Source of the DNA: Acidobacteriota bacterium
GTDB taxonomy: Bacteria; Acidobacteriota; Thermoanaerobaculia; Gp7-AA8
DNA length: 58,096 bases
Assembly: GCA_039932995.1 (NCBI GenBank)
Contig: JBDTOZ010000826.1
Coordinates: 1 to 58,096 of the forward strand
Direction of reading: 5' to 3'
Shown here: positions 4,875 to 32,178 of the stretch, in pieces
Numbering within the stretch: position 1 is the stretch's first letter
Layout: each line of letters starts with the position of its first letter
The notes under the pieces: generated by a model
Told to the model about the DNA's origin: nothing
Seen by the model: only the letters and a program-made list of their open reading frames with translations
The model's database searches: none
Program-made: the position numbers and the translations under genes

Positions 4875-7373
<2,499 letters not shown>

Positions 7374-7497: not shown

Positions 7498-7825
7498 AAG
7501 GCCGGCAGGGCGGGTCGCGGCGGACCTCAGGCGACCGCGGTCGCTTCGAGCGGAGCCGGTCGGCGTTGCCCCGTCGTCCCGGATCAGGTCCGTTCCACCA
7601 ACTCCAGGTCCGCGGCGATCTCGAGGGATTCCACAGGATCCGGCCCGGGACGTTGCGGATGAGGTACTGGTCGTCCAGGAAGATGGTGTCGTCGTTGCGG
7701 TAGTAGGTGAAGGTATGGCGGGCCCGAGTGGTTGGCCTGGCCTTGGCACGTGCGGTCGCTCCGTCGGGGCGTCCTCGCGAAACCGCGCACTCCTAGTCGG
7801 ACAACTGAGATTTGGACCGCACTCC

Positions 7826-7865
7826 AAAGAAAAGGGCCCGTTCCGCACGTGGCGAAACGGGCCCG
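7826..7865 (-). terminator. rho-independent terminator downstream of the first OmpA-like gene
   Basis: Stem GGGCCCGTT/AACGGGCCC, followed on the minus strand by TTTTCTTTGG. Confidence 0.6.
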
Positions 7866-7887
7866 GAGGCTGGCGTGGGTGGGCGAC

Positions 7888-8532
7888 TTACTGCTGCGGG
7901 GCGCGGATGTGGATCTCGACCCGGCGGTTGAGCTGACGCCCTTCGGCCGTGTCGTTCGAGGATTTGGGGTTCTCTTCGCCATAGCCATACACCGTGATGG
8001 CGGACGAGCGGACACCGCTGTCGATCAGGTAATCGGCGACGGCTGAGGCGCGCTGCTCGGAGAGACTCTTGTTGTGACTGTTGGTGCCGGTCGAATCGGT
8101 GTGCCCTTCGACGCTGATCAGGTTGTCCGGATACTGGCGAAAGTTGGTGCCCAGTTCCTGAAGCGTGGTCCGGGACGCCGCACGCAGGGCGGAAGAGTCC
8201 GTGTCGAAAAGGATGTCGTTGGTCAGACGGACGTTGATCTCGCCCTCGGAAGGACGCGAGACTTCGACGCCTTCGATCTGCCGGAGCTCCTGCTCCTGCT
8301 TGTCCATCCGGCGGCCGATGACCCCTCCGACCGCGGCGCCCGCTGCAGCGCCGGCCACGGCTCCCGTGCGGTTGTTGCCTGACTGATTGCCGATGACCGC
8401 GCCTGCAACGCCACCGATGACGGCTCCAATGGCGGCACCACGCTTGGTCTTGCGGTTGGGATCGTCGGTCGTCGATGCACAGGCAACGACGAAGACTGCG
8501 ATGAATGCGAGGATGAGGCTCTTGCGTAACAT
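7888..8532 (-). CDS. OmpA-family lipoprotein with glycine-zipper segment
   Basis: Start MLRKSLILAFIAVFVVAC (lipobox); Gly-zipper GAAIGAVIGGVAGAVIG; OmpA_C motifs GHTDSTG...N..LS..RA..V. The upstream part of the track ORF is not protein-like. Confidence 0.85.
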   Translation of the reverse strand: MLRKSLILAFIAVFVVACASTTDDPNRKTKRGAAIGAVIGGVAGAVIGNQSGNNRTGAVAGAAAGAAVGGVIGRRMDKQEQELRQIEGVEVSRPSEGEINVRLTNDILFDTDSSALRAASRTTLQELGTNFRQYPDNLISVEGHTDSTGTNSHNKSLSEQRASAVADYLIDSGVRSSAITVYGYGEENPKSSNDTAEGRQLNRRVEIHIRAPQQ

Positions 8533-8692
8533 ATTCAGAAATACCTCCGTTTGCTCAGAGCGAGAAAGTCCGCTCGGTTTCCTTGGGGGTCCTTCGCAAC
8601 ATTGATACCGCTTTGATGTTGCGCGGAACAGCACGGGCAAGATGCCCATACGCGCTGCTTTTTGAGAAGGACGGGAGGGCGTGGGTGGGAGC

Positions 8693-8880
8693 CTCTGTGG
8701 AGCGGTGGACTTTAGTCCACTGGGCACTCGCGACGCGCGTGCCGAAGGCGGGTGAGGCGCTCGGGACGGTCGTGCCGGGAGCCTCGTTCAGTGACGCCGC
8801 CACGACGGCAGAGGGGAAGTGTCTCGCAAGAGCCTGGCAGGCTAAAGCCTACCGCTCCACAGGCACGCCTCCCTCCGATC
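8693..8880 (+). mobile_element. MITE-like non-coding repeat, copy 1
   Basis: About 90% identical to the reverse complement of 49983-50176. Near-terminal inverted repeats CTGTGGAGCGGTGGACTTTAGTCC / GGCTAAAGCCTACCGCTCCACAG (about 20/24). No ORF. Confidence 0.75.
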
Positions 8881-9702: not shown

Positions 9703-10836
9703 GTGTACCATCCCGCCGTGTCCCTTGAATCCTCCGTGTCGGGCGTGCTGCGTAACCGACTCAAATCAGGAGACTTGCCGTTCGGCGAATTCGTCGAGCT
9801 GGTCCTCTACCACCCGCAATTGGGCTACTACGCCCGGGGTCAGAACCCGGTGGGGAAGGAGGCCGATTACGTCACCGCGCCCTTGCTCAGCCCGGTCTTT
9901 TCGTTCGCTTTGGGCAACCTCATCCAGGAGTTCCTGCGCCGACATGAGGGCGAGCTGTGCTCAATTGTGGACATCGGTTGCGGAGATGGCAGCCTGATCT
10001 GCGATCTCGCCTCGCGAGGTGAAGGGCAAACCACTCGATTCATTGGCGTCGATCGCGCGCTGGCCAGAGTGAACAGGGGTTCGTCTGAGAAGGGCCGGCC
10101 CGTCGAGTTCGTCAGCTCCCTCGAAGGGGTCCCGCGTGGGGGTTGCCATTTGATCGTGTCCAACGAGCTCTACGACGCTTTCCCGTTCTCCCGGCTGGTC
10201 CGGCGCGGCGACCGGATTCACGAGCTTTACGTGACGGAACGCGGAGGCGCGCTGGATTGGAGCGAACAGAGGGCACCTGAGGCTTACGAAGACTACTTCG
10301 CGGAACGGGGAGTGGCCTTGGACGAGGGACAGTTCGCGGACGTCTCGCTGGCCTGGGAAACCTTTCATGAGGAGGTCCTGCGCCTCGTGAAGCGGGGCCT
10401 CATCGTCACCATCGATTACGGATTCCCGGCGGAGAAGCTGTTTCATCCGCGCGCGCGTCGATTCGGAACGGCGGCGGCGTATGCGGGGCAGCGGGTCTCC
10501 CGCGATCTGCTGGCGAGCCCCGGCCAGCAGGACCTCACGGCGCACATCAACTTCACCGATTTGGAGCGGGCGGGAGCGCGCGAAGGTGCGCGAACCCTCT
10601 TCTTCGACCGGCTGGCCCGGTTTCTTCTGACCCTCGACATCACCAGCCACGAGCTGTTCCGTCCCGTACACGAGGTGGAGATCGCCAGCGCACAGGAAGG
10701 GGTGGACCTGCTTCAGGCTCGCGAGGACGCACGCCGGCTGGTGCTTCCTGACGGCATCGGCGAGGAGATGCGCGTGCTCGTCCAATCCAAGGGGGCGGAG
10801 ATGGAAGGCTGGTCGTTTCAGCGGGCGCTGTTTTAA
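9703..10836 (+). CDS. class I SAM-dependent methyltransferase, MidA/NDUFAF7 (DUF185) family
   Basis: FGEFVELVLYHPQLGYY...DYVTAP and IVDIGCGDGSL (SAM motif I) are typical of MidA. GTG start at 9703; an alternative GTG lies at 9718. Confidence 0.8.
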   Translation: MYHPAVSLESSVSGVLRNRLKSGDLPFGEFVELVLYHPQLGYYARGQNPVGKEADYVTAPLLSPVFSFALGNLIQEFLRRHEGELCSIVDIGCGDGSLICDLASRGEGQTTRFIGVDRALARVNRGSSEKGRPVEFVSSLEGVPRGGCHLIVSNELYDAFPFSRLVRRGDRIHELYVTERGGALDWSEQRAPEAYEDYFAERGVALDEGQFADVSLAWETFHEEVLRLVKRGLIVTIDYGFPAEKLFHPRARRFGTAAAYAGQRVSRDLLASPGQQDLTAHINFTDLERAGAREGARTLFFDRLARFLLTLDITSHELFRPVHEVEIASAQEGVDLLQAREDARRLVLPDGIGEEMRVLVQSKGAEMEGWSFQRALF

Positions 10837-10849
10837 CGCTTTGCGTTTT

Positions 10850-10999
10850 GTTGCTGGTTGCTGGTTGCTGGTTGTCTGCGGTGTATCGCCAGCCGGCAAC
10901 GCCGCGGAAGTACAACGTAGCAACCAGCAACCAGCAACCAGCAACCAGCAACCAGCAACGTAGCAACGTAGCAACGTAGCAACCAGCAACCTTCAGCAA
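10850..10999. repeat. heptamer-array palindrome, GTTGCTG type
   Basis: Left arm is (GTTGCTG)x3 then GTTGTCTGCGG (10850-10881). Right arm is CCGCGG ... (CAACCAG)x5, (CAACGTAG)x3, CAACCAG (10902-10999). Confidence 0.85.
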
Positions 11000-11391: not shown

Positions 11392-11415
11392 CTCTCCCGG
11401 AACGCGGGCTAGAAT
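11388..11415 (+). promoter_or_regulatory. candidate sigma70-type promoter of the nuo operon
   Basis: TTGACT (11388-11393), 16-nt spacer, TAGAAT (11410-11415). The ATG at 11414 lies inside the -10 box, which argues for the nuoA start at 11447. Confidence 0.5.
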
Positions 11416-11446
11416 GGCCGCGGTCTCCAAGTCAGGCGAGCGAAGA

Positions 11447-11806
11447 ATGGCAAACTACTCAGTGCTGCTGGTAGCCGTGCTCATCGTATTGTCGGTCCCG
11501 GTGTTGACTCTGTTCGTCCTTGCGCCCCTGGTCCGCGCTTCGGTCCGAAACAAGGTCAAGCTCGAGCCCTACGAGTGCGGTGTGGCCCCCACGTCCCTTG
11601 CATTCGACCACCGTTTTTCGGTGCGGTACTTCCTCATTGCCGTCCTCTTCATCGTCTTCGATGTCGAGACAGTCTTCCTCTTCCCCTGGGCAATCCGGTT
11701 CAAACAGCTCGGCTGGCTCGGAGCCGCCGAGATGGCAGTGTTCCTGGCGATTCTCCTGGTCGGCTATTACTACGCCTGGAAGCGGAAGGTTCTCACATGG
11801 GTCTGA
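11447..11806 (+). CDS. nuoA: NADH-quinone oxidoreductase subunit A
   Basis: [16 protein letters not shown]..., YECG, FDVE..FLFPW motifs. The ORF is open from 11414, but that start overlaps the predicted -10 box. Confidence 0.85.
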
Positions 11807-12816
11807 TCGAGAACCGCTTCGAACCGAACGTTCTCACGACGACCGTCGACAAGTTTTTCAATTGGGCCCGCAAATCGTCGTTGTGGCCGATGCAGTTCGG
11901 TCTGGCCTGCTGTGCCATCGAGATGATGGCGGTTCTGGATCCCCGGCATGACATGGCCCGGTTCGGGGCCGAGGTCTTTCGCGCCACTCCACGCCAAGCG
12001 GACCTGATGATCGTCTCCGGCACGGTCACCGAGAAGATGGCCCCGATCGTCCGCCGCCTGTGGGATCAGATGCCCGATCCGAAGTGGGTGATCGCCATGG
12101 GCTCCTGTGCGACCTGCGGCGGTCCCTATGACACGTACGCCGTCACGCAGGGAGTCGATCGTCTCATCCCGGTGGATGTCTACATCCCTGGTTGTCCTCC
12201 CCGCCCCGAAGCGTTGATCTGGGGCCTCATGGAGCTGCAGAAGAAGATCGAGAAGATGCACATCCTCCGCAAGGGGGGAGAGGCGTACGACTTCGCTCGC
12301 GCCGCGGTGCGCGATTCGCTTCGTCCGGTCCATGAGGGGCCGGCGCTCCGCGCCGAGCAGGCGGCGCAGCTCAAGCCTGCTCCGATCTCGGGAGTGAAGC
12401 GCGCTCCGTCGGTTCCGGCCCCACCGAAACCGGTCCGTCCGGTGGCCGAGGCTGCGGCTCCGGTGGAAGGGGACGTCACGCAGGCGGACATCGAGCAGGC
12501 GGCCGCGCCTGAGCTGGTGCCGGGGGACGGCTCGGATGGTGCGTCGCCCACGGCGCCGTTCCACCGCGAAGATCTGATGCTCGTCGAGCGCATGCAGCTC
12601 GCCAACGAGATGGGCGGCAAGTTGGAGACGAAGTTGTTCGCGGCCATGGCGCAGACCGACTGCGGAGCCTGCGGCTGGGATTGCGAAGGCTACGCAAACG
12701 CCATCGCCACCGGGGAGACCGACGACATCTCATTGTGCGTCCCCGGCGAGACGGAGACGCTGGACATGCTCAAACTGTTGATGGAGGAGGCCGGGAAGCC
12801 GTTCACGGGCGCGTAA
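11797..12816 (+). CDS. nuoB: NADH-quinone oxidoreductase subunit B fused to a C-terminal RnfB-type 4-Cys Fe-S domain
   Basis: Canonical N2-cluster motifs [18 protein letters not shown] and GCPPRPE lie in residues 1-155. A Pro/Ala-rich linker follows, then [34 protein letters not shown]. The start overlaps the nuoA end. Confidence 0.9.
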
Positions 12817-12822
12817 GAGTCT

Positions 12823-13009
12823 GTTGCTGGTTGCTGGTTGCTGGTTGTCCGCGGGCCGTCGCTGAGCGATGGTCTTTCGGAGAACCGGCAACCGGGAACC
12901 TGCAAGTGAAGGTCGCAGGTTCCCCGTTCCTGTTTGCTGGGTGTTGGTTTCTCCGAGCGGATCGCTTGCGCGATCGGCCGCGGACAACCAGCAACCAGGA
13001 ACCAGCAAC
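12823..13009. repeat. nested heptamer-array palindrome filling the nuoB-nuoC spacer
   Basis: Outer arms 12823-12854 and 12978-13009 are complementary at 31/32 positions. An inner imperfect hairpin spans 12879-12903 / 12915-12954. The left arm differs by 1 nt from 10850-10881. Confidence 0.9.
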
Positions 13010-13012
13010 CGA

Positions 13013-13783
13013 ATGTCAGAGCAACCACCGCCAGGCCCGACTCCTCCTCCCGTCGCGCCGCCCGCGCCCGCGGGCCGGACCGTCGACGACATGAAGCGCG
13101 ACCCACTCGTGGCCGCGGCGGTCTCGCGCGCCGGCGAGGCCGTCCTCGATGCCCGCGAGATGGTGGGGGAGTTGACGCTCTTCATCGAGTGTGACCGGAT
13201 CGCGGAGGTCTGTCGCGTCTTCAAGGACTCCGGATTCGTCTATCTGGTCGACCTCTGCGGCGTGGACTACTCGCAGTTCCCGAATCACACCGGTCCGCGC
13301 TTCACCGTGGTCTACACGCTCTACTCTTTTCAAAAGAACGCGCGCGTGCGTCTCCGCGTCTGGACCGACGGCACCGTCCCGTCGGTGACCTCGGTCTGGA
13401 AGACCGCGAACTGGCATGAGCGCGAGACCTTCGACATGCTGGGCATCGACTTCACCGGTCACCCGAACCTCGAGCGCATCCTCATGTGGGATGGCTTCAA
13501 TGGTCATCCACTGCGCAAAGACTTTCCGGTGCGCGGCATCGACACCGGCGCGCGCATCTATCCCGAGGTCTTCCCACCGGGTGGCGGCCCAAAGGCGGGA
13601 TCGACGGGCAAGGACGTGAAGGACGTGAACGTCTACAAGGGCGAGTGGAAGCGCTACGGGCAATGGCCGGTCGCGCAGATCGGCGGCGGAGCTCCGGCCG
13701 CGAAACCGGCCGCACCGAAACCGGTGGCCAAACCGGTCGTCGCCGCGGCGCCTGTCGAAGCTCCGCCCGAGGAGGAAGCGTGA
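13013..13783 (+). CDS. nuoC: NADH-quinone oxidoreductase subunit C with Pro/Ala-rich N- and C-terminal extensions
   Basis: NWHERE.FDM.GI.F.GHP..RIL core motif. Alternative start ATG at 13091 (MKRDPLV). Confidence 0.85.
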   Translation: MSEQPPPGPTPPPVAPPAPAGRTVDDMKRDPLVAAAVSRAGEAVLDAREMVGELTLFIECDRIAEVCRVFKDSGFVYLVDLCGVDYSQFPNHTGPRFTVVYTLYSFQKNARVRLRVWTDGTVPSVTSVWKTANWHERETFDMLGIDFTGHPNLERILMWDGFNGHPLRKDFPVRGIDTGARIYPEVFPPGGGPKAGSTGKDVKDVNVYKGEWKRYGQWPVAQIGGGAPAAKPAAPKPVAKPVVAAAPVEAPPEEEA

Positions 13784-13888: not shown

Positions 13889-15004
13889 ATGTTTGACGTC
13901 CATGAGATGGAGGTCAACTTCGGGCCGCAGCACCCGTCGACCCATGGCGTGCTGCGCGTCATCCTCAGGATCGACGGCGAGCGGATCATCGACGCCAAAC
14001 CGATCATCGGCTATCTCCATCGCGGCACCGAGAAGCTCTTCGAGCACATGGCCTATCCGCAGTGCATTCCGCACACGGACCGCATGGACTACGTGGCCTC
14101 GGCCACCAACAATCTGGGGTTCGTCGAGACCGTCGAGAAACTGCTCGGCGTCACGCACCTGATTCCCCGCCGCGCGCAGATCCTGCGCGTGATCCTGTCC
14201 GAGCTGCAGCGCATCTCCTCACACCTGCTCTGGCTGGCCACGCACGCCATCGACCTCGGTGCGATGACGCCGTTCTTCTACACCTTCCGCGAGCGCGAGC
14301 AGGTCCTGGACTTTTTCGAGTCCTACTGTGGTGCCCGTCTGACGCTGAACTGCATGCGCATCGGGGGCATGCCCGAAGACATTCCGCCGCGCTGGCTCGA
14401 GGACATCGAAGCCTTCATCGACAAGTTCGAGGACGCCATCGACGAGTACGAGTCGCTGCTGACGAACAACCGCATCTGGAAGAAACGCACCATCGGCATC
14501 GGCGTGCTCTCTCCCGAAGACGCGATCGACTGGGGCATCACCGGACCGCCGCTGCGCGGGAGCGGCGTGGAGTGGGATCTCCGCCGGGCCCAACCCTACG
14601 AGATCTACCCCGAGCTCGAGTTCGAGGTCCCTATCGGGAAGAACGGCGACACCTACGATCGCTACCTCGTACGCATGGCCGAGATGCGCCAGTCGCGGCG
14701 CATTCTCAAGCAGTGCATTCCCCTCATCAAAGCCACGCCGGTGGGGGATCTGAAAGCCAAGATCTCCAAAGTGATCCGGCCGCCGGCAGGGGAGGTCTAT
14801 CACTCCATCGAGTCCCCGAAGGGGGAGCTGGGCTATTACATCGTCAGCGACGGCAAGACCCAGAACGCCTATCGCTGCCACGTGCGGCCCCCCTCCTTCG
14901 TGAATCTGCAGGCACTGCCCGCGCTCACCAAAGGACACCTGGTCTCGGACCTCGTGGCCCTCATTGGAACGATCGACATCGTGCTCGGCGAGGTGGACCG
15001 GTGA
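13889..15004 (+). CDS. nuoD: NADH-quinone oxidoreductase subunit D
   Basis: NFGPQHPSTHGVLR, YLHRGTEK, and C-terminal DIVLGEVDR. Confidence 0.95.
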   Translation: MFDVHEMEVNFGPQHPSTHGVLRVILRIDGERIIDAKPIIGYLHRGTEKLFEHMAYPQCIPHTDRMDYVASATNNLGFVETVEKLLGVTHLIPRRAQILRVILSELQRISSHLLWLATHAIDLGAMTPFFYTFREREQVLDFFESYCGARLTLNCMRIGGMPEDIPPRWLEDIEAFIDKFEDAIDEYESLLTNNRIWKKRTIGIGVLSPEDAIDWGITGPPLRGSGVEWDLRRAQPYEIYPELEFEVPIGKNGDTYDRYLVRMAEMRQSRRILKQCIPLIKATPVGDLKAKISKVIRPPAGEVYHSIESPKGELGYYIVSDGKTQNAYRCHVRPPSFVNLQALPALTKGHLVSDLVALIGTIDIVLGEVDR

Positions 15005-15119: not shown

Positions 15120-16256
15120 ATGAGTCCCGTGATCCTGAAGTATCTCCTCTGGCCGCTGGTCAAGTTCCTGGTGGCCTTCCTGATCGTTCAGATCATCGTG
15201 GCGGCGATGAACTGGGTGGAACGGCGGCTGCTGGGCTTGTTCCAGGCCCGGCTTGGACCCAATCGCGTCGGTCCGGGCGGGCTGCTGCAGATCATCGCCG
15301 ACCCGATCAAGTTCCTGCTCAAGGAAGACATCGTTCCGTCGAGCGCAGAGCGGATTGCCTACTTTCTCGGACCGATCTGGCCACTCATCCCCGCCTTCCT
15401 GGTCTTCTGCCTGATCCCGTTCGGTCCGCCGCCGATGTTCATCGCGGCGCGCGTCAACGTCGGCCTGCTGCTGATCCTGGCCATGACCTCCACCGCTGTT
15501 TACGGGATCATCCTCGGCGGCTGGGCCTCGAACAACAAGTACTCGCTGATGGGCGGCCTGCGCTCGGCCGCACAGATGGTCTCGTACGAAGTTCCCTTCG
15601 GACTCTCCATCGTGGGCGTGCTGATGATCTGCGGCACGCTCGATCTGGTGACGATCGTCCGGTACCAGGAGACCAACGCCTGGAACTTCCTCCCGCAGAT
15701 CGTGGGCTGTTTCATCTTCTTCGTCTCGATGGTGGCGGAGAACAACCGCACGCCCTTCGACCTCCCGGAAGCGGAGTCCGAGCTGGTGGCGGGTTATCAC
15801 ACCGAGTACTCGGCGATGAAGTTCGCGTTCTTCATGCTGGCCGAGTATTCGATGATGATCGTCAACTCCTGCCTCATCGTGACGCTCTTCTTCGGGGGCT
15901 GGACGCTGGGGATGTTCGAGCTCGGTCTGACCACCGACGTCCTGGTGGGGATGGGGGTGATGGGCGGCGTCATCGGCGCGGTGATCTTCTTCGTCAAGGT
16001 GATGCTGTTCCTGCTGGTGTACGTCTGGTTCCGGGCCACGTTCCCGCGGTATCGCTTCGATCAGCTCATGGACCTCGGCTGGAAGTTCCTGATTCCCCTG
16101 GCGCTGGCGAACATCGTCGTGACCGGGGGGTTCATCCTGGCCGGTCAGGAGCGGCTGATGTACTGGATCGGCGCCGGGACCATCGCCCTCACGGCATTCT
16201 TCCTCTTCCGACCGAAACGCAAGCGCGCCCCGCAGAAGGTGGCTCATGCAAGTTGA
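15120..16256 (+). CDS. nuoH: NADH-quinone oxidoreductase subunit H
   Basis: ERRLLGLFQARLGPNRVGP, polytopic, EAESELVAGYHTEYS motif. GGAGAG RBS at 15109-15114. Confidence 0.95.
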   Translation: MSPVILKYLLWPLVKFLVAFLIVQIIVAAMNWVERRLLGLFQARLGPNRVGPGGLLQIIADPIKFLLKEDIVPSSAERIAYFLGPIWPLIPAFLVFCLIPFGPPPMFIAARVNVGLLLILAMTSTAVYGIILGGWASNNKYSLMGGLRSAAQMVSYEVPFGLSIVGVLMICGTLDLVTIVRYQETNAWNFLPQIVGCFIFFVSMVAENNRTPFDLPEAESELVAGYHTEYSAMKFAFFMLAEYSMMIVNSCLIVTLFFGGWTLGMFELGLTTDVLVGMGVMGGVIGAVIFFVKVMLFLLVYVWFRATFPRYRFDQLMDLGWKFLIPLALANIVVTGGFILAGQERLMYWIGAGTIALTAFFLFRPKRKRAPQKVAHAS

Positions 16257-16782
16257 GTATCCGAAGCCGAGGTGGACGGACAAGTTCCTGCTCCTGGACA
16301 TGCTGGAGGGGTTGAAGACCACGTTGCGTGAGCTCTTCAAGCCCAAAGTCACGATCCGTTACCCGGAAGAGCGCATGGAGCCGGCGGATCGGTTCCGGGG
16401 CATGTTCAAGTTCTCCTACGACCGCTGCATCGCCTGCAAACTGTGCGCGGTGGCCTGTCCCATCGACATCATCTACATCGACGTCCACGACGACATCATC
16501 GAAGAGGGCGGCAAGAAGAAGAAGGTCAAGGTCCTGGACCGGTATGACATCGACGTGAAGCGCTGCATGTTCTGCTCGCTTTGCGAGGAAGCCTGTCCCA
16601 CGAAGCCGAAGTCGATCTGGCTGACCACCAAGACTTACGAGCTGGCCAGCTACGACCGCAACGATCTGTACTTCAACATGCAGCAGCTCGAATACTGGGA
16701 CGACCGGCCCAAGTACACGGGATTGCCCGGCGATGACACCGGTGCGGATGACGGGAAGCTGATCGCAGGAGGCACGAAGTGA
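16246..16782 (+). CDS. nuoI: NADH-quinone oxidoreductase subunit I
   Basis: Two 4Fe-4S motifs, CIACKLCAVACP and CMFCSLCEEACP. Confidence 0.95.
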   Translation: MQVEYPKPRWTDKFLLLDMLEGLKTTLRELFKPKVTIRYPEERMEPADRFRGMFKFSYDRCIACKLCAVACPIDIIYIDVHDDIIEEGGKKKKVKVLDRYDIDVKRCMFCSLCEEACPTKPKSIWLTTKTYELASYDRNDLYFNMQQLEYWDDRPKYTGLPGDDTGADDGKLIAGGTK

Positions 16783-16873: not shown

Positions 16874-17554
16874 ATGGAATCCGTAACGAGCCAGATCCCT
16901 CTCCTCGTCTTCATGGTGATCGGAACGATCGCCGTGGCTTCCGCCATTCTGGTGGTGGCCATGCGCAATCCCGTGCACTCCGCGTTGTTCCTGCTCCTGA
17001 CGTTCCTCTGCGTGGCCGTGCTGTTCGTGATGCAGTCCGCCGAGTTCGTGGCGGCCGTGCAGGTGCTCGTGTACGCGGGCGGAATCATGGTGCTGTTCCT
17101 CTTCGTGGTCATGCTCATCAATTACCGGCACCTCCCGGAGGAGGCCGTGTTGTCGAAGGTCTGGCTGGGGGGAGTGGGCGTCGGCCTGGCGGTCTTCATC
17201 CTCTTTTTCACCATGGTGCGCAACGGGGTCTACGCGGACCAGGTGCCTGACGCTTCGAAGAAGCTGGGCACCGTCACCGAGCACTACGTCACCGAGCACC
17301 CCAGCGATCCGAACAAGATGGTGCGACGCACACGCGAACGCGAGAACCGCAACTCCGAAGCGGTGGCCATGGCGCTCTACAACAAGTACCTGGTCCCCTT
17401 CGAAGTGGCCTCGCTGTTCCTGCTCGTGGCCATGATCGGCGCGATCGTGATTGGCAAACGCGAGCTCTCCGCCGAGGAAGAGGAGTCCACGCCGCAATTC
17501 ATCCTGGAGCGCGCGGAAGTGGAGAAGGAAGTGAAGGAGGCCATGAGTGCGTGA
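16874..17554 (+). CDS. nuoJ: NADH-quinone oxidoreductase subunit J
   Basis: [40 protein letters not shown]. Confidence 0.9.
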
Positions 17555-17607: not shown

Positions 17608-17910
17608 ATGCCTAGCACCGCTCAATATCTGATGCTGTCGGGCACTCTGTTCGCCATTGGACTGATCGGAGTGATCGTGCGACGCAACATGATCACGGTG
17701 CTCATGTCCATCGAACTGATGCTCAACGCCGTGAACATCAACCTGGTGGCCTTCTCCCACCGCCTGGCCGACCTGGAGGGTCAGGTCTTCACGGTCTTCG
17801 TGATCACCGTGGCCGCCGGCGAAGCAGCCGTGGGCCTGGCCATCATCATCCAGTTGTACCGGCTGCGCAGCACCGTGAATGTGGACGAGGTGAAGACCCT
17901 TCATGGTTAA
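17608..17910 (+). CDS. nuoK: NADH-quinone oxidoreductase subunit K
   Basis: 100 aa from the ATG at 17608, with a GGGAGG RBS upstream. [16 protein letters not shown] and [11 protein letters not shown] motifs. Confidence 0.9.
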
Positions 17911-20062
17911 AGAAGCCCTGATCCTCGTGGTCCTGCTCCCCGCGCTCGGCGCGCTGATCAATGGTCTGCGCGCCGCCGCGAATCCGCATGCGCCGAAGAA
18001 CAAGACCGTGACCAAAGCGGTGGCGTTGGGAGCGACACTGCTCTCGGCCCTGACGGCCACAGCCGGTGTGGTCCTCCCGTACCTGGGCCAGCACCAGGCT
18101 TTGAAGTTCTCGTATTACGAGTGGATCCCCGCGGGCATGGGCTCGGTCGGCTCCGCCATTGCGAACTTCTCGGTCGAGCTGGCCTTCCGGATCGATCCGC
18201 TGTCCTGCACCATGCTCATGATCGTGACGTGGGTGGGCTTCCTCATCCACGTCTACGCCACCGGCTACATGGCCCACGAAAAGGGCTACACGCGCTTCTT
18301 CACCTACCTCAATCTGTTCATGTTCATGATGCTGCTGCTCGTCCTCGGGGCGAACTACATGGTCATGTTCGTGGGGTGGGAAGGGGTCGGGCTCTGCTCC
18401 TATCTCCTCATCGGGTTCTATTACGACAAGAACTTCGCCGCCGACGCCGGGAAGAAAGCGTTCATCACGAACCGCATCGGCGACTTCGGCTTCATCCTGG
18501 GCGTCTTCCTGATCTTCAACACCTTCGGCACCGCGGATTACGAGAAAGTGTTCGCGCTCGCTGCCAGCGGCGGGATGGCGCAGTACGGCGGGATGGCCAC
18601 GGCCATCTGCCTGCTCCTGTTCGTCGGCGCGGCCGGCAAATCCGCCCAGGTGCCGTTGTACGTGTGGCTACCCGACGCGATGGCCGGACCGACTCCCGTC
18701 TCCGCGCTCATCCACGCCGCGACGATGGTCACGGCCGGCGTCTACATGGTCGTTCGCTCCAATGTGCTGTTCCGCATGAGCGAGACCGCCTCCATGACCG
18801 TGGCCATCGTGGGCGCGGTCACGGCGATCTTCGCGGCCACGATCGGGATCGCCCAGAACGACATCAAGAAGGTCCTCGCGTACTCGACGGTATCGCAGCT
18901 GGGATTCATGTTCCTGGCCGCAGGGGTGGGCGCGTATACCGCCGCGATCTTCCACGTGATGACGCACGCCTTCTTCAAGGCCTGCCTCTTCCTCGGCGCC
19001 GGATCGGTCATTCACGGCTGCGGCGGGGAACAGGACATGCGCAAGATGGGCGGTCTGCGAAAGTACATGCCGTCCACGCACTGGACCATGGCCATCGCCA
19101 CCTACGCCATCGCCGGGCTGCCTTTCGCCGCGGGATTCATCTCCAAGGACGAGATTCTCGCCAATGCCTGGGGCTATGCGCCGGCCATCTGGACCGTCGG
19201 GGCCATTGCCGCGGGCTTCACCGCCTTCTACATGGCCCGGCTCTATTTCATGACGTTCTGGGGCACGTATCGGGGCGCACAGACCGTGGGAATCGAGCAG
19301 TCCGAGCCCGAGCACGCGGGCCACGATCTGATCCCGGACCGTCCGCACCTCGATGATGGGGACGCGCACGCCGGCAAGGCCCACGGTCACCACGCGCACT
19401 CCCATGATCCGCACGAGTCCCCGGCATCGATGACCGGCGTGCTCTGGATTCTCGCCGCGCTTTCCGTCCTGGGCGGTTTCATCGGCTGGCCCGCGGCGTT
19501 GGGCGGCTCGCATCCCACGCCCTTCCAGCGCTGGCTGGAGCCGGTGCTGTTGCCCATCGCTGGGCAGGCATTTCATTTCCACGAGGCCGCGCACTCGCTG
19601 GAATGGATCCTGATGGCCATTTCCGTGGGCATCGCGGCATTGGGCGTGCTGCTCGCGTATCGCCTCTATGTCCGCAGGCCGCCCGTTCCGGACGTCCTGG
19701 AGCCGCGTCTCGGCCCCGTGTACCACCTGCTCGCCAACAAGTATTGGGTGGACGAGCTCTATGACGCCACCGTCATCGCCGGAACGCTGGCCTTCAGCAG
19801 GATCCTCTGGTGGATCGATGCGAACATCGTGGACGGCATCGTCAACGGCGTTCGGCACGTGACGGTGATCGCACTCGGATACGGCTCCAACCTGTTCGAC
19901 CGCTATGTCATCGACGGCGCCGTGAACGGCGTGGCCGCGGGTGCCAAGGGCGGATCCATGATGTTTCGACGCATGCAGAGCGGTCTGGTGCAGAACTACG
20001 CTCTGGTGATGGGCGGTGGCATCGTCCTGATTGCACTCGTGTACCTGTTCATGAAGCCGTAA
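17903..20062 (+). CDS. nuoL: NADH-quinone oxidoreductase subunit L
   Basis: 719 aa antiporter-like subunit. [14 protein letters not shown], and a His-rich loop before the C-terminal lateral helix. Confidence 0.95.
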
Positions 20063-20078: not shown

Positions 20079-21686
20079 ATGATTCTCAACCTGATCACTT
20101 ACATCCCGCTCATCGGAGCGCTGTTGATCCTGTTCTTCGTGAACAAGGCGAACACACGGGCCATCCGCTGGCTGGCCACCGCGACCGTGGTCGTGGACTT
20201 CATCGTCTCGCTCTACATCTGGTTCAACTTCAATCCCGCGGGGACCGGGGATGGTCTTTGGCAGTTCCAGTACATCGCGGACTGGATTCCGTCCCTCGGA
20301 GTGAAATATCACTTCGGTGTCGACGGCATTTCCGTGCTGCTCATCCTCATGACCACGTTCATGGGCATCATCGCCGTGGTCTCTTCCTATACGGCGGTCC
20401 ATCATCGCGAGAAGGAGTACTACGCCCTGCTGCTGATGCTCCAGACGGGCATGATCGGCACGTTCTGCGCGCTGGACTTCTTCCTCTTCTATGTGTTCTG
20501 GGAAATCATGCTCGTGCCGATGTACTTCATCATCGGCATCTGGGGTGGACAGCGAAAGCTCTACGCGGCCATCAAATTCTTCCTCTACACCCTGGCCGGC
20601 TCCGTATTGATGCTGTTGTCGATCCTGGCGCTCTTCTTCTTCAATGATGGCGGCATCTCCTTCCTCAACATTCAGGGGCTGGGCAACGGGGCCTCGTTCA
20701 GCGTGCTGAAGTTCCATGAGATCGGGCATCTCATCCCGCCTTCACTGCAGTTCTGGATCTTCCTGGGCTTCTTCTTCGGCTTCGCCATCAAGGTGCCGAT
20801 GTTTCCGTTCCATACCTGGCTGCCCGATGCGCACGTGGAAGCTCCCACGGCCGGCTCCATCATCCTGGCGGCGGTGCTGCTGAAGATGGGCACGTACGGG
20901 TTCGTGCGGTTTGCGTTGCCGATTCTTCCCGATGCCACGAGGCAGCTCCTGGTGCCCATCGCGGTGCTGGCTCTCATCGGGATCATCTACGGTGCGCTGG
21001 TGTCGCTGGTGCAGAAGGACATGAAGAAGCTGGTGGCCTACTCTTCGGTCTCCCACCTCGGCTTCGTGATGCTGGGGATGTTCGCTCTCAACCCGATGGG
21101 TCTGCGGGGCTCCATCCTGCAGATGATCAACCACGGCATTTCCACGGGGGCGCTCTTCCTGCTCGTGGGGATGGTTTATGAGCGCCGCCACACCCGCATG
21201 ATCGCGGACTACGGCGGTCTCGCGAAACAGATGCCCCTGTACGCGGCCCTGTTCCTCATCGCGGCGCTCTCTTCGATGGGCTTGCCGGCGCTCAATGGCT
21301 TCATCGGCGAGTTCACCATCCTGCTCGGTGTAGCCAATTCCACCGCCTACGGGACGATGGCCTATGCGGTCATCGCCGCGGTGGGAATCGTGCTTGGCGC
21401 CGCCTACCTGCTCTGGCTCTATCAGCGTGTGTTCTGGGGACCGCTCGACAATCCCGCCAATGCCGCGCTGCAGGACGTCAACCGGCGCGAGTTGGGGATG
21501 ATGCTGGCCCTGGTGGTGCTCATGATCTGGATCGGCATCTATCCGAAGCCACTCTTCGACGCTATCGAACAGCCGGTCGATTACATCGTACGGAAGGTCG
21601 ACCCCACCTATTTCGACAAGAAGCCCCTTTCGTATCCGGCTACTCCCGCCGCGGTCGAAGAGCACCATGAGGTCGCGGTCAAATGA
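20079..21686 (+). CDS. nuoM: NADH-quinone oxidoreductase subunit M
   Basis: Antiporter-like; FYVFWEIMLVPMYF, HTWLPDAHVEAPT. Confidence 0.95.
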   Translation: MILNLITYIPLIGALLILFFVNKANTRAIRWLATATVVVDFIVSLYIWFNFNPAGTGDGLWQFQYIADWIPSLGVKYHFGVDGISVLLILMTTFMGIIAVVSSYTAVHHREKEYYALLLMLQTGMIGTFCALDFFLFYVFWEIMLVPMYFIIGIWGGQRKLYAAIKFFLYTLAGSVLMLLSILALFFFNDGGISFLNIQGLGNGASFSVLKFHEIGHLIPPSLQFWIFLGFFFGFAIKVPMFPFHTWLPDAHVEAPTAGSIILAAVLLKMGTYGFVRFALPILPDATRQLLVPIAVLALIGIIYGALVSLVQKDMKKLVAYSSVSHLGFVMLGMFALNPMGLRGSILQMINHGISTGALFLLVGMVYERRHTRMIADYGGLAKQMPLYAALFLIAALSSMGLPALNGFIGEFTILLGVANSTAYGTMAYAVIAAVGIVLGAAYLLWLYQRVFWGPLDNPANAALQDVNRRELGMMLALVVLMIWIGIYPKPLFDAIEQPVDYIVRKVDPTYFDKKPLSYPATPAAVEEHHEVAVK

Positions 21687-23161
21687 CGTGGGGCGACACG
21701 CTGTACCTTCTTCCGGAGATCGTCATCTCCCTGGGTGCATGCCTGCTGTTGCTTGCGCCGGTGAGCGGCCTCCGGATGGGGAGTGGGGCGGCGAAATGGG
21801 TGATGCTGGCTTTGCTCGCGCTCACGGCCGGCGCGCTCTTCGCCGCCTCGTATCTGGTGACCACCGGCCCCGATCCGACCCCCGGCTTCGCGTCGATGTT
21901 CGCTCTCGACTCGTTTTCGATCTTCTTCAAGCTCCTGTTCATCGTGACCATGGCCATGATCACGCTGCTTTCGGATACGTTCCTGCGCGATTCGCGGTAC
22001 TCGCCATGGGAGTATTACTCGCTGCTCGCGTTCGCGTTGTGCGGAATGATGTTCATGGCCAGCGGCATCCACCTGGCGGCCATCTACATCGGCCTGGAGC
22101 TGATGTCGCTGTCGAGCTACATCCTGGCCGGATACTTCAAGAACGAACAGAAGAGCACCGAGGCGGCCATGAAGTATTTCGTGCTCGGCGCGGTGAGCTC
22201 GGCCATCCTGCTGTATGGGATCTCGCTGATCTACGGAGTGACCGGCACGCTCAACCTGGCAGGTGTGTCGCGCTCCCTCTCCACGCTGGTCAGCAATGAC
22301 GCCTTGATGTTCGGGATCATGATGTTGGGCGCGGGGCTGTGTTTCAAGATCGCCGCGGCTCCGTTTCACATGTGGACCCCCGACGTGTACGAGGGGGCGC
22401 CCACCCCGGTCACGGCGTTCCTCTCCACCGCTTCCAAGGCCGCGGCCTTCGCCATTTTCGCGCGCATCTTCTACACCGGCATGCACCACTTCCGCCTGGA
22501 CTGGCAGAACGTCCTGGCCGCAATCGCCGCTCTCTCGATGGTGGTGGGCAACCTGGCCGCCATCACCCAGGACAACGTGAAGCGCATGCTCGCCTACTCG
22601 TCCGTGGGTCATGCGGGCTACGTGTTGCTGGGTGTTCTCGCGGCCAACGAGATGGGCCTGTATGGCGTGCTCGTTTACGCCGTGGTGTACGTGTTCGCCA
22701 CGCTGGGGATCTGGGCCACCGTGCTGATGCTGGAGCGCGGCGACTACGCCGGGGAGAAGGTGGACGACTTCAATGGCCTGAATTCCCGGGCCCCGTTCTG
22801 GGCCTTCGCCATGATCGTCTTTCTGCTGTCGCTGGGCGGCATTCCCCCTACGGCCGGCTTCATCGGGAAGTACCTCCTCTTCTACGCCGCGGTGCAGTCC
22901 GGGTTCGGCTGGCTGGCCGTGATCGCCGTGCTGATGTCGGCGGTCTCGATGTTCTTCTACTTCCGCCTGGTCATGGCCATGTACCTGAAGGAAGGGCGAG
23001 AGGCCAGACTGACCGGCGGCGGCTCGCTGAAAGTGGTGGCCTTGATCGCGCTGGCGGTCACCCTGATTTTCGGAATCCTTCCGCAGCCGTTGATCCAGTC
23101 GGCGAAGGATTCGGGGCGCAGAGTGGCCACCCGGCCGACGGCCGCCCTGCTCGGACGATGA
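21683..23161 (+). CDS. nuoN: NADH-quinone oxidoreductase subunit N
   Basis: Antiporter-like; GLELMSLSSYILAG, APFHMWTPDVYEGAPT. The start overlaps the nuoM stop. Confidence 0.95.
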   Translation: MTWGDTLYLLPEIVISLGACLLLLAPVSGLRMGSGAAKWVMLALLALTAGALFAASYLVTTGPDPTPGFASMFALDSFSIFFKLLFIVTMAMITLLSDTFLRDSRYSPWEYYSLLAFALCGMMFMASGIHLAAIYIGLELMSLSSYILAGYFKNEQKSTEAAMKYFVLGAVSSAILLYGISLIYGVTGTLNLAGVSRSLSTLVSNDALMFGIMMLGAGLCFKIAAAPFHMWTPDVYEGAPTPVTAFLSTASKAAAFAIFARIFYTGMHHFRLDWQNVLAAIAALSMVVGNLAAITQDNVKRMLAYSSVGHAGYVLLGVLAANEMGLYGVLVYAVVYVFATLGIWATVLMLERGDYAGEKVDDFNGLNSRAPFWAFAMIVFLLSLGGIPPTAGFIGKYLLFYAAVQSGFGWLAVIAVLMSAVSMFFYFRLVMAMYLKEGREARLTGGGSLKVVALIALAVTLIFGILPQPLIQSAKDSGRRVATRPTAALLGR

Positions 23162-23775: not shown

Positions 23776-23793
23776 AAGGATCCTCGAAGGTCG

Positions 23794-24492: not shown

Positions 24493-24547
24493 ATCGAAAC
24501 CCTAGGGTTCGCATCCAGTTCGCATTTCAACAAGGAGGAGTTCAAAA

Positions 24548-32135: not shown

Positions 32136-32178
32136 AGTGCTTGCAATCAACTGCACAGTGCTTACAATAACAGTGCTT
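32136..32178 (+). promoter_or_regulatory. candidate promoter overlapped by three AGTGCTT direct repeats
   Basis: TTGCAA (32141-32146), 16-nt spacer, TACAAT (32163-32168). AGTGCTT occurs at 32136, 32157 and 32172; the first two form AGTGCTTnCAAT, 21 bp apart. Confidence 0.45.

Follow-up and report, generated by a model that had tools for sequence, protein, structure and literature searches.

What delivers electrons to a complex I that has no NADH-oxidising head? Enzymes without the NuoEFG head are widespread in anaerobes and soil bacteria, and examples of such 11-subunit (NUO11) enzymes are the NDH-1 of cyanobacteria and chloroplasts (NdhS/V/O), archaeal Fpo (FpoF), the Nuo of Campylobacter and the NUO11 of Desulfitobacterium and Chlorobium. 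NDH-1 uses extra, non-redox docking subunits for soluble ferredoxin, Fpo a separate F420H2 dehydrogenase subunit, and the Campylobacter enzyme two non-EF subunits that bind flavodoxin. To our knowledge, in none of these NUO11 enzymes is a tether present that links NuoB, NuoC or NuoI covalently to a redox domain. According to a 2011 survey no designated partner protein was found as donor to NUO11 (PMC3144371), and the donor of the 11-subunit complex I is still listed as unknown in a 2024 study (PMC11238625).

The same question is raised by a nuo operon in the stretch of DNA analysed here (the window: contig JBDTOZ010000826.1 of a soil Acidobacteriota bacterium from the Thermoanaerobaculia, 58,096 nucleotides), where the nuoB gene continues well beyond the NuoB core. 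A preliminary description of the DNA had proposed that this extension ends in an RnfB-type Fe-S domain on a Pro/Ala-rich tether, and that the domain is a plausible device for electron entry. We followed up both proposals with profile and similarity searches, comparison of orthologous loci and structure prediction.

The nuo operon and its surroundings

The operon consists of the 11 subunit genes nuoABCDHIJKLMN, and the order A, B-FeS, C, D, H to N was found conserved in 78 loci with tblastn. The genes and one inserted element are the following.

11414..11806, forward strand: nuoA, 130 aa (ORF; the orthologue in loci L001 and L002 matches PF00507)
11797..12816, forward strand: nuoB-FeS fusion gene, 339 aa plus stop, an ORF without break
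12820..13012, no strand assigned: hairpin element built from runs of the heptamers (GTTGCTG)n / (CAGCAAC)n, lying between the stop of nuoB and the start of nuoC
13013..13783, forward strand: nuoC, 256 aa (PF00329, E 1.6e-43), without the Fe-S domain
13889..15004, forward strand: nuoD, 371 aa, with nuoH directly next (PF00346 on the orthologue)
15120..16256, forward strand: nuoH, probable start at 15120 in an ORF open from 15027 (orthologues of 374-384 aa, PF00146)
16246..16782, forward strand: nuoI, 178 aa, two CxxCxxCxxxCP motifs (clusters N6a/N6b; Fer4 families on the orthologue)
16874-17554, forward strand: nuoJ, membrane arm
about 17608-17910, forward strand: nuoK, membrane arm
17903-20062, forward strand: nuoL, membrane arm
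20079-21686, forward strand: nuoM, membrane arm
21683-23161, forward strand: nuoN, membrane arm

The five membrane-arm genes nuoJ to nuoN were assigned from the ORFs, the Pfam matches of orthologues and gene order. As the preliminary description had stated, the NADH-oxidising N-module is missing from the operon: nuoH is the next gene after nuoD. No nuoE, nuoF or nuoG was found in the operon, and across 64 loci the gap from nuoD to nuoH is at most 273 nt, with a median of 115 nt. The absence is stated for the operon, on the basis of the window plus flanking sequence of at most 10 kb. No N-module genes were detected among 20 other window ORFs scanned with Pfam, a set that covers part of the ORFs after 32 kb. 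With the NUO11 enzymes the locus shares the 11 core genes, an operon without nuoEFG, and an electron entry at NuoI that has to be explained.

The operon is flanked by a gene for an H+-pyrophosphatase and by ATP synthase genes, and a methyltransferase gene of the complex I assembly type (PF02636) is conserved beside it. No gene for a donor (FNR, ferredoxin, PFOR or hydrogenase) was found in the scanned part of the window and the conserved flanks.

The hairpin element is an inverted repeat with 43-nt arms that are 88% complementary, and its heptamer motif gave 12 matches against 0.01 expected. It is absent from loci L001 and L003, in which nuoB and nuoC abut. The insertion accounts for a false upstream extension of the nuoC ORF; a nuoC start at 12869 was rejected in favour of the true start at 13013. 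The element plays no part in the electron-transfer mechanism. Downstream, NuoC ends in an Ala/Pro/Glu-type tail encoded by 13691-13780. The Pro/Ala-rich tail had earlier been placed from about 13570 onwards, and of this region 13570-13690 turned out to be conserved NuoC sequence.

The nuoB-FeS fusion gene is genuine and conserved

The frame of the fusion gene is continuous from stop to stop (11575-12816) in ORF analysis, and the gene starts with the ATG at 11797, overlapping the stop codon of nuoA. In a public collection we found a protein (P0330) with 100% identity to the window protein. The polypeptide can be divided as follows.

11797..12261, forward strand: NuoB core, residues 1-155, with the N2 cluster cysteines C38/C39, C104 and C133
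12262..12405, forward strand: conserved basic proximal segment, residues 156-203 (48 aa), GPALRAEQ...GVKRA, net charge +4
12406..12552, forward strand: variable Ala/Pro/Glu-rich linker (the tether), residues 204-252 (49 aa)
12553..12813, forward strand: acidic Fe-S domain of the PF04060 type, residues 253-339 (87 aa)

The core was recognised by PF01058 (residues 38-147, E 1.5e-29, 102.8 bits against a cut-off of 27), TIGR01957 (239.5 bits against 142.7) and NF005012 (251.1 bits against 116). The N2 ligand sites are all found, C38/C39 in ACCAIEM, C104 in GSCATCGG and C133 in PGCPP, and are invariant among 70 orthologues, in agreement with the complete NuoB core described before. Mean identity of the core to these orthologues is 96%, with a dN/dS of 0.016.

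The extension beyond the core comprises 184 aa (12262-12813) in three parts. The proximal segment has 89% mean identity among the 70 orthologues and is modelled by AF2 as two helices at low confidence (pLDDT 55-66); it probably packs on the complex and would in that way anchor the tether. The linker has 43% identity, varies from 35 to 62 aa across orthologues, is rich in Ala (34%), Pro (19%) and Glu (10%), and is predicted to be disordered (AF2 pLDDT of about 48-58). The P/A-rich linker of the preliminary description is confined to residues 204-252, residues 156-203 being a separate conserved segment. The Fe-S domain has 80% identity among orthologues and a dN/dS of 0.081 (dS of about 1). All nine cysteines of the NuoB-FeS protein are invariant in the 70 orthologues, and in-frame GC3 is 0.85.

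A stop or frameshift between core and extension was looked for and none was found, core and extension lying in one frame in every intact orthologous locus. This applies to 72 of the 78 loci from Thermoanaerobaculia species; of the remaining six, five are truncated where their contig ends, and in one there are indels by which nuoA is split as well. At least 70 Thermoanaerobaculia species have the fusion. Full-length proteins of 336-348 aa with both PF01058 and PF04060 make up at least 120 database clusters, which also answers whether orthologues encode the extension as a separate, unrelated ORF: they do not. The NuoB-FeS fusion is genuine, conserved and under purifying selection.

Identity of the Fe-S domain

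The domain carries the motif C289-x2-C292-x3-C296-x17-C314-V-P-G, ending in C-x-PG, and the four cysteines are invariant in the 70 orthologues. Their codons lie at 12661, 12670, 12682 and 12736, exactly where the preliminary description had put them, and the peptide that it quoted occurs verbatim in the nuoB translation. The HMM search that it had proposed gave a match to PF04060 above the curated gathering cut-off of 23 (residues 286-316, model positions 3-33 of 33). The score was 27.5 bits with the whole nuoB protein as query and 29.5 bits with the domain alone. The domain is expected to carry one [4Fe-4S] cluster. It is strongly acidic, as ferredoxins are (net charge -10, pI 4.2), and the AF2 model of the domain alone is compact with four helices (pLDDT 92.3, pTM 0.85).

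In a search of a domain profile against PDB sequences, chain 8ahx_B, the RnfB of the solved Azotobacter vinelandii Rnf complex, was matched with E 0.006 and all four cysteines aligned. Phmmer with the single-sequence extension found nothing among PDB sequences. Foldseek against the PDB returned only noise for the model of the 184-aa extension. With the domain-only model no match reached E <= 0.001, and the 50 matches listed include neither RnfB nor CoFeSP chains. The identity of the domain rests on sequence profiles, since Foldseek gave no confirmation at the level of the fold. A small, loop-rich domain modelled without its cluster is perhaps a poor Foldseek query.

The term RnfB-type applies to the Pfam domain only. 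The N-terminal "FdI" domain of RnfB/RsxB belongs to the same PF04060, its four cysteines align with those of the window domain, and both are small domains on flexible, solvent-exposed linkers in a membrane redox complex. However, the cysteine spacing is CX2CX3C in the window domain and CX2CX4C in RnfB. RnfB has an N-terminal membrane helix in front of the domain and, after it, at least two 2x[4Fe-4S] ferredoxin domains, whereas the window domain closes the NuoB chain at its C-terminus, where neither a membrane anchor nor Fer4 domains are present. The RnfB models TIGR01944 (32.8 bits against a cut-off of 68.7) and NF003475 (RnfB/RsxB; 29.2 bits against 203) matched only at model positions of about 40-90, and no Fer4 Pfam match was found in the nuoB protein. 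We therefore rejected the extension as RnfB proper. For the RnfB of Clostridium tetanomorphum, the Rnf study describes the FdI domain as highly mobile between two flexible linkers and proposes that it moves to bridge a 25 Å gap, shuttling single electrons; it also names the CoFeSP N-domain as a member of the PF04060 family (PMC9588780).

The best family match of the domain was the N-terminal domain of a group of proteins that we call FeS-FNR (NF004859 / PRK06214), a family that is annotated "sulfite reductase subunit alpha". NF004859 matched the nuoB protein over model positions 42-146 of 539 (E 3.7e-26, 91.9 bits against a cut-off of 432). The architecture of FeS-FNR proteins is PF04060 followed by PF00667 (FAD_binding_1) and PF00175 (NAD_binding_1), and neither PF00667 nor PF00175 matched the nuoB protein. 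With the score below the cut-off and the FAD and NAD domains absent, the nuoB protein is not a full FeS-FNR protein and the kinship is one of the domain only. NCBIfam also gave weak matches of the nuoB protein to MobB/FeS-domain proteins.

FeS-FNR proteins as nearest relatives

At the level of the domain the likeness is close. FeS-FNR proteins have the same CX2CX3C spacing and the motif PWHD/PFH...ERM...AAMAQxDC, with 42-50% identity, and their Fe-S domain likewise sits on an Ala/Pro/Gly-rich linker. They differ in that a flavin reductase module comes after the domain, whereas the window protein has no FAD/NAD domain and is part of complex I. FeS-FNR genes were found immediately downstream of NIR_SIR siroheme reductase genes at three Pseudomonadota loci, one from Hyphomicrobiales and two gammaproteobacterial. 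Pfam scans covered these three loci; a fourth resembles them in the sizes and arrangement of its genes.

The Fe-S domain of FeS-FNR proteins is placed between an FNR module and a siroheme reductase, and therefore the route would run from NAD(P)H through FAD and the FeS domain to a ferredoxin-type acceptor. In this setting the domain has the look of a built-in ferredoxin, and such a role is suggested here for the family labelled sulfite reductase alpha. No experimental characterisation of FeS-FNR proteins was found in the literature searched.

The domain on other Nuo subunits and in other phyla

The same Fe-S domain was found on NuoC, after an Ala/Pro/Glu-type tail, in 36 of 76 relatives; in the other 40 NuoC ends as it does in the window, without the domain. 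In Verrucomicrobiota the domain is fused to NuoI at five loci, four of them inside a visible nuo(A)BCD-I cluster. In Planctomycetota it is part of a separate protein of 250 aa whose gene lies 4-14 nt after nuoN, in EFG-less operons with nuoB/C, D, H, I, J, K, L, M and N in which D adjoins H. Across three phyla, NuoB, NuoC and NuoI have each acquired the domain independently, and it also occurs as a separate gene.

Two further candidates did not add to this series. A NuoC-FeS lineage with a short linker (P0141) was sought in species genomes, where the matches covered the NuoC core only. One protein that joins a NuoD N-terminus to the FeS domain (P0079) is probably a chimeric or partial gene call and was left uncounted as a NuoD fusion.

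Some Acidobacteriota have an EFG-less operon without the fusion (locus L124), and the domain is therefore not obligatory for such enzymes. The recurrence of the domain in two other phyla on or beside head-less complex I makes it a strong candidate for electron entry. The electron-entry idea of the preliminary description is strengthened by the occurrence on NuoC, on NuoI and after nuoN in EFG-less operons, and it continues to be a proposal as far as function is concerned.

No description of a fusion between a Nuo subunit and PF04060 was found in the full-text literature searched, which covered journals without subscription. New here are the domain on NuoC, on NuoI in Verrucomicrobiota and as a separate gene in Planctomycetota, and its kinship to FeS-FNR proteins.

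Proposed function and alternative explanations

We lean slightly towards the explanation that the extension is a tethered, swinging-arm [4Fe-4S] carrier which feeds, and may possibly drain, the NuoI-NuoB cluster chain of an N-module-less complex I. The cluster binding, mobility, docking site, donor and direction of flow that we infer would be as follows. The Fe-S domain would bind one [4Fe-4S] cluster and serve as a covalently tethered, ferredoxin-like one-electron carrier. It would take electrons from a cytoplasmic reductase, dock on the exposed outer face of NuoI as the presumed acceptor site, and pass the electrons on to N6a, N6b, N2 and finally quinone. The tethered domain would in this way take over from a soluble ferredoxin and from the missing NuoEFG input module alike.

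The proposed layout, in which a long Ala/Pro-rich tether lets a small cofactor domain serve two or more active sites, is that of known swinging-arm carriers, such as the E2 lipoyl domains of 2-oxoacid dehydrogenases, the CysJ/CPR FMN domain and the [4Fe-4S] N-domain of the corrinoid iron-sulfur protein AcsC/CdhE. These carriers have other cofactors (lipoate, FMN) or other host enzymes, none of them complex I, and their likeness to NuoB-FeS is one of mechanism only. As to docking, a basic patch was sought in the NuoI loop that separates the two cluster motifs, and no consistent complementary charge was found: GKKKKVKV is conserved in Thermoanaerobaculia, yet the net charge of the loop is about -1, and in the Planctomycetota with the FeS gene the loop is acidic.

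More tentatively, and with a little less than even expectation, we suggest that three or more phyla equip their N-module-less complex I with this PF04060 subfamily as a dedicated, hitherto unrecognised electron-input module, a "ferredoxin on a leash". If so, the module would in effect be a twelfth functional part of the enzyme, and cytoplasmic reductases would feed the quinone pool via a proton pump without NADH or soluble ferredoxin. An FNR-type NAD(P)H reductase is a candidate donor on this reading, since the nearest relatives of the domain are wired to an FNR module, and a species with arms on both NuoB and NuoC might be served by two donors. Among head-less enzymes outside cyanobacteria and archaea, the module would be the first case of a designated device for electron delivery, and for these lineages it would answer what donates electrons to the 11-subunit complex I.

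It is rather unlikely, in our judgement, that electrons run in the opposite direction, from quinol with the help of the proton-motive force to N6a and on to the tethered domain, which would then be an electron exit to ferredoxin-dependent enzymes such as nitrite or sulfite reductase in an organism presumed to have no other sources of reduced ferredoxin. The closest homologous domains do serve ferredoxin-type NIR_SIR reductases, the nearby H+-pyrophosphatase and ATP synthase genes encode proton-motive-force machinery, and no measured result here fixes the direction. The wider family also includes RnfB, and Rnf is described as bidirectional (PMC9588780). However, no gene for a ferredoxin-dependent acceptor is linked to the operon in the 78 loci, and reaching the potential of ferredoxin from the quinol pool is energetically costly. 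Characterised head-less relatives such as cyanobacterial NDH-1 and Fpo take in electrons from ferredoxin or F420H2 (PMC11238625), which argues for input.

Long flexible linkers and the independent attachment to three Q-module subunits fit a roving carrier better than a domain that carries no electrons at all. Such a domain could be a redox or O2 sensor gating the enzyme, a scaffold or chaperone for Fe-S insertion into NuoB/NuoI, or a tag for docking a partner, and we consider this group of explanations unlikely. It draws on the presence of PF04060 in proteins not known for electron transfer together with the weak MobB/FeS matches, on the conserved PF02636 assembly-type methyltransferase gene, and on the fold search, which gave no ferredoxin-like match. 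Against it, the homologous domain of FeS-FNR proteins sits on the electron path from flavin module to reductase, and in the Rnf study the RnfB domain is assigned a role as electron shuttle (PMC9588780).

It is highly improbable that the fusion is functionally meaningless because an internal Met codon at 12256 starts a free Fe-S protein of 186 aa. Several PGAP, JGI and ENA records hold only the last 140-197 aa, and a purine-rich GAGAAG precedes the internal ATG. These shorter calls are a subset, however, and the majority of database entries are full-length at 336-348 aa. Core and extension have no intervening stop in the window and 72 orthologous loci, and ribosomes on nuoB must therefore read through. 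The candidate internal starts belong to the C-terminal helix of the NuoB core, which is conserved, and any extra internal product would leave the fusion protein in place. An artefact, in which a frameshift or chimera joins nuoB to a downstream gene, is effectively refuted: broken frames were seen only in L070 and L078, which are long-read assemblies whose indels also hit nuoA or the Fe-S domain itself, while independent assemblies from 70 or more species, and 120 or more protein clusters, show the same in-frame layout and the identical protein is found in another data set.

With the carrier explanation, records that give the extension alone as a stand-alone "(Fe-S)-binding protein" are to be regarded as annotation errors. 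The shorter calls are labelled either in this way or as "sulfite reductase flavoprotein alpha".

The Fe-S extension is part of NuoB

The frame of nuoB was open from 11575 to 12816 in an ORF scan of the window, and translation from ATG 11797, in overlap with the stop codon of nuoA, gives a product of 339 aa. Residues 1-155 were a complete NuoB core, as had been noticed from the sequence alone. Family HMMs recognised them as standard NuoB (PF01058, E 1.5e-29; TIGR01957, 239.5 bits with a cut-off of 142.7; NF005012, 251 bits with a cut-off of 116), and the N2 ligands C38/C39, C104 and C133 were all in place. The peptide cited in the preliminary description was found in the NuoB translation, and its cysteine codons (12661, 12670, 12682, 12736) proved exact, corresponding to C289, C292, C296 and C314. 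An RnfB-type Fe-S domain had also been proposed, and PF04060 indeed matched residues 286-316 above its gathering cut-off of 23, with 27.5 bits for the whole NuoB and 29.5 bits for the isolated domain.

Mean identity of window NuoB to 70 aligned orthologues, by region
Residues 1-155, NuoB core: 96%
Residues 156-203, proximal extension: 89%
Residues 204-252, Ala/Pro/Glu-rich linker: 43%
Residues 253-339, Fe-S domain: 80%

Identity differed sharply between the regions, and the linker length varied from 35 to 62 aa among the 70 orthologues, in which all nine cysteines of NuoB-FeS were invariant. At a dS of about 1, pairwise dN/dS against the window was 0.016 in the core and 0.081 in the Fe-S domain. 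Based on the regional conservation, the invariant cysteines and the low dN/dS, the extension is a translated and selected part of NuoB.

A species-level scan with one genome per species gave 78 loci, without exception in Thermoanaerobaculia or Acidobacteriota MAGs. The Fe-S motif and the core motif ACCAIEM shared one stop-to-stop frame in 72 of them, and the window also has a single open frame with no stop or frameshift between core and extension, in agreement with the continuous ORF described earlier. Five of the other six loci end at a contig end. The sixth, L078, has core and Fe-S domain in separate frames in a long-read assembly where nuoA is also split by indels, and in L070, likewise a long-read assembly with indels, the common frame is broken within the Fe-S domain. 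An assembly artefact as the source of the fusion is effectively refuted and retains practically no probability. It is also very improbable that the Fe-S domain is a separate product translated from an internal Met; such a product could not abolish the fusion protein, which stays intact because no stop codon lies between core and extension.

At least 120 database clusters (90% identity) of 336-348 aa matched the full-length window protein, one of them with 100% identity, and nearly all carry PF01058 and PF04060. Their labels say no more than 'NADH-quinone oxidoreductase subunit B' or 'hypothetical protein'. Some PGAP, JGI and ENA records annotate only the last 140-197 aa, leaving the NuoB core without a gene call, under the names '(Fe-S)-binding protein' or 'sulfite reductase flavoprotein alpha'; the JGI label for similar fragments is 'sulfite reductase (NADPH) flavoprotein alpha-component'. 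Since the ORFs are continuous in those very loci, the extension-only calls are an annotation artefact and represent a systematic mis-annotation of the fused gene.

Calls for the last 182-189 aa of the nuoB-FeS ORF, named '(Fe-S)-binding protein', in GenBank MAG records (L numbers, here and below, are genomic loci compared with the window)
L001, 3898-4467
L002, 6001-6549
L003, 612-1178

The operon lacks the NADH-oxidising head

Genes around nuoB-FeS in the window
4878-7373, minus strand, H+-translocating pyrophosphatase gene, upstream of the nuo operon
9703-10836, plus strand, PF02636 (Methyltransf_28) gene, directly upstream of nuoA
11414-11806, plus strand, nuoA ORF
13013-13783, plus strand, nuoC ORF, corrected start
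13889-15004, plus strand, nuoD ORF
After nuoD, to 23161, plus strand, nuoH, I, J, K, L, M and N ORFs
23371-24865, plus strand, atpI (Pfam-confirmed) and probable atpB and atpE (from ORF sequence), downstream of the nuo operon

The reported absence of the N-module from the operon held: nothing lies between nuoD and nuoH, the operon contains no N-module gene, and none was found among 20 other window ORFs scanned with Pfam. The gene order (PF02636 gene, nuoA, B-FeS, C with or without FeS, D, H, I, J, K, L, M, N) was conserved in all 78 Thermoanaerobaculia loci as far as the contigs reach, with a D-to-H gap of 115 nt in the median and 273 nt at most (64 loci), too short to accommodate nuoEFG. In other Planctomycetota nuo operons this gap is about 3.8 kb, as would be expected if E, F and G lay there. 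The pyrophosphatase gene heads the conserved block in many of the 78 loci, and together the pyrophosphatase, nuo and ATP synthase genes form a compact proton-motive-force gene block. An acidobacterial EFG-less operon, L124, also has atpB downstream of nuoN; its NuoB has no extension, and so, with at least one such operon, the Fe-S module on head-less complex I is frequent but not universal.

The Pro/Ala-rich tail of NuoC, previously placed at about 13570-13783, does exist but covers only 13691-13780. In 36 of the 76 Thermoanaerobaculia loci with a complete nuoC, comprising all the more distant relatives (for example L002, 6550-7515), NuoC carries the Fe-S domain as well as NuoB, giving two tethered domains per complex. 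In the 40 loci without it, which include the window and its closest relatives, NuoC ends in the same type of Ala/Pro/Glu tail. The window tail thus corresponds to the linker minus its cargo, which suggests that the cargo was lost from NuoC in this subclade or gained in the other.

Identity of the Fe-S domain

The cysteine motif of the domain is C-x2-C-x3-C-x17-C-x-P-G. A profile of the 87-residue domain matched a single relevant solved protein, RnfB from the Rnf complex of Azotobacter vinelandii (8ahx_B, E 0.006), and the alignment paired all four cysteines; RnfB has CX2CX4C, whereas the window domain differs by a one-residue indel (CX2CX3C). By a wide margin the best family match was NF004859/PRK06214, 'sulfite reductase subunit alpha' (E 3.7e-26). 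The match spans positions 42-146 of the 539 in the model. They form the N-terminal domain of proteins here called FeS-FNR, which otherwise consist of an FNR-type FAD/NAD(P)H module (Pfam architecture PF04060, PF00667 and PF00175). The window protein as RnfB itself was rejected: RnfB models match at about positions 40-90 only, with 32.8 bits against a cut-off of 68.7, and unlike RnfB proper the protein has neither a membrane helix nor a Fer4 domain.

AlphaFold2 predicted the domain confidently as a compact unit of four helices (pLDDT 92.3, pTM 0.85), and the linker with low confidence (pLDDT about 48-58), as for an apparently disordered segment. Foldseek gave no significant match in the PDB for the domain model or the whole-extension model, so fold-level support is missing. 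Like ferredoxins, the domain is strongly acidic, with a net charge of -10 and a pI of 4.2.

Other carriers of the domain

When 1.84 billion representative proteins were searched exhaustively with a profile, 1,156 clusters matched at E <= 1e-3, with 382 at E <= 1e-10. The best 150 of the 1,156 were classified by local phmmer and Pfam.

Carriers of the domain (P numbers are database protein clusters)
NuoB-FeS: for example P0077
NuoC-FeS: for example P0080; a short-linker lineage is represented by P0141
NuoI-FeS: P0125 and P0087, Verrucomicrobiota MAGs
Proteins of about 250 aa, N-terminal domain without Pfam match and C-terminal Fe-S domain: Planctomycetota
FeS-FNR: L088 7190-10575; L090 7166-10992; L091 7195-10587; L093 2634-6444
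Tandem copies, two or three Fe-S domains: P0076 (three); L089, L090, L093
Proteins of about 225 aa, Cys-rich N-domain (CPxH...CPQD...CPxC) and Fe-S domain: L179-L218, about 7600-8330 each, Acidobacteriota/Thermoanaerobaculia

The nuoI-FeS gene ends a nuo(A)-B-C-D-I cluster without E/F/G in four of the five loci L082-L086. In the Verrucomicrobiota proteins (e.g. L084, 6085-10020) the domain follows a long linker that also holds the APFxxEQRxWL motif typical of the FeS-FNR N-terminus. The genes downstream of nuoI-FeS in L084, the one locus viewed in detail, are unrelated to nuo, which places nuoH and nuoJ-N elsewhere.

The gene for the protein of about 250 aa lies directly 3' of nuoN in six Planctomycetota loci (L174-L178 and L219, about 8000-8760). 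Two loci with full context, L221 and L222 (10001-10759), have nuoB/C, D, H, I, J, K, L, M and N followed after 4-14 nt by this gene; D adjoins H, with no E/F/G. The protein is a candidate twelfth subunit of head-less complex I.

About 49 FeS-FNR proteins were among the best 150 clusters, and a further 34 or so of these 150, which show only the FeS-FNR N-terminal motif, are probably partial proteins of this kind. In three Pfam-scanned Pseudomonadota loci (one Hyphomicrobiales, two gammaproteobacterial) the FeS-FNR gene is directly downstream of a NIR_SIR siroheme reductase gene of about 590 aa, and a fourth, L093, has equal gene sizes and layout, judged by these alone. Neighbouring genes encode ABC transporters (L088) and cyanate lyase (L091), and in some loci the Fe-S domain is doubled in tandem or a 132-aa Fe-S gene is split off. 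This suggests a hitherto uncharacterised NAD(P)H-dependent, ferredoxin-independent nitrite/sulfite reductase system.

The gene for the protein of about 225 aa is away from nuo, 10 nt after a metallo-beta-lactamase-fold gene in the two loci examined; the product could be a partner or a paralogous carrier.

A possible electron carrier

The domain is thus joined to three Q-module subunits, always by a long flexible linker, and is a separate operon-end gene in another phylum; wherever its nuo context was visible, the operon had no NADH-oxidising head. Three lines, Rosetta-stone logic, the nearest homologues and the Rnf precedent, point to an electron-carrier role. In FeS-FNR the domain has an NAD(P)H/FAD reductase module on one side and, judging from the adjacent gene, a siroheme reductase of the ferredoxin type on the other, and is most simply read as a built-in ferredoxin. 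Small cofactor domains on Ala/Pro-rich tethers are the classic swinging-arm design of 2-oxoacid dehydrogenases. In Rnf, PMC9588780 describes the PF04060-type domain as 'highly mobile' between two solvent-exposed linkers and proposes that it moves to bridge clusters too distant for direct transfer.

From the convergence of these lines we propose a roaming [4Fe-4S] carrier. Residues 253-339 would carry a single [4Fe-4S] cluster and move about on the tether; a cytoplasmic enzyme would reduce the domain, which may dock on the exposed NuoI face, and electrons would then pass through N6a, N6b and N2 to quinone. What was observed directly is the domain architecture, which is conserved and under selection, an operon without EFG and the repeated association of the two; that a tethered carrier reduced in the cytoplasm feeds the NuoI-NuoB cluster chain is, on balance, somewhat more likely than not. 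The gene neighbourhoods of the nuo operon yielded no donor candidate.

Electrons could also run the other way, with quinol and proton-motive force generating low-potential electrons for export to ferredoxin-dependent enzymes. Nothing observed fixes the direction and the homologues serve nitrite/sulfite reductases, but no acceptor gene is linked to the operon, and we consider reverse flow unlikely. Quite unlikely is a non-catalytic domain acting as sensor, cluster-assembly aid or docking tag: the fold search without a match and the assembly-type methyltransferase gene adjoining the operon would suit it, whereas long tethers on three subunits fit a roving carrier better.

The window enzyme is a member of the known 11-subunit complex I-like class and the domain belongs to a known Pfam family; their combination appears undescribed. 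Other head-less enzymes have the non-redox docking subunits NdhS/V/O (cyanobacterial NDH-1), FpoF (archaeal Fpo) or flavodoxin-binding subunits (Campylobacter), solutions that, from established knowledge, differ from the tethered domain of the window. No mention of Nuo-PF04060 fusions was found in a full-text literature search, whose scope leaves out most subscription journals, or in papers checked by term search, among them the complex I genomic surveys PMC3144371, PMC4758237 and PMC12361115. A survey of 2011 had found no designated partner protein for 11-subunit complex I (PMC3144371), and its electron donor was still termed an open question in 2024 (PMC11238625). As the proteins are already public, together with precomputed hits to both Pfam families, what is new is the recognition of the pattern and of what it means rather than the sequences themselves.

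Other features of the window

A PF02636 gene was found directly 5' of nuoA in most of the 78 related loci (e.g. L001 1670-2770, L002 4156-5016). To PF02636 belongs NDUFAF7/MidA, the arginine methyltransferase that acts in assembly of mitochondrial complex I, and the family's operon-level tie to complex I in bacteria may merit attention. The ORFs at 25383-26399 and 30579-32000 had no Pfam match, and a very large ORF of 1,796 aa with coding-like GC3 lies at 32137-37527 on the plus strand.

Hairpin-forming intergenic elements with runs of the heptamer GTTGCTG and its complement
10848-10999
12820-13012
52694-52776

The motif had 12 matches, with 0.01 expected. The element between nuoB and nuoC (12820-13012) has 43-nt arms with 88% complementarity. 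Relatives lack this element, their nuoB and nuoC directly adjoining each other, and it resembles a small mobile or REP/MITE-like insertion within the operon. Since the hairpin repeat at 12820-13012 is an insertion, the apparent nuoC start at 12869 is false and the true start is at 13013.
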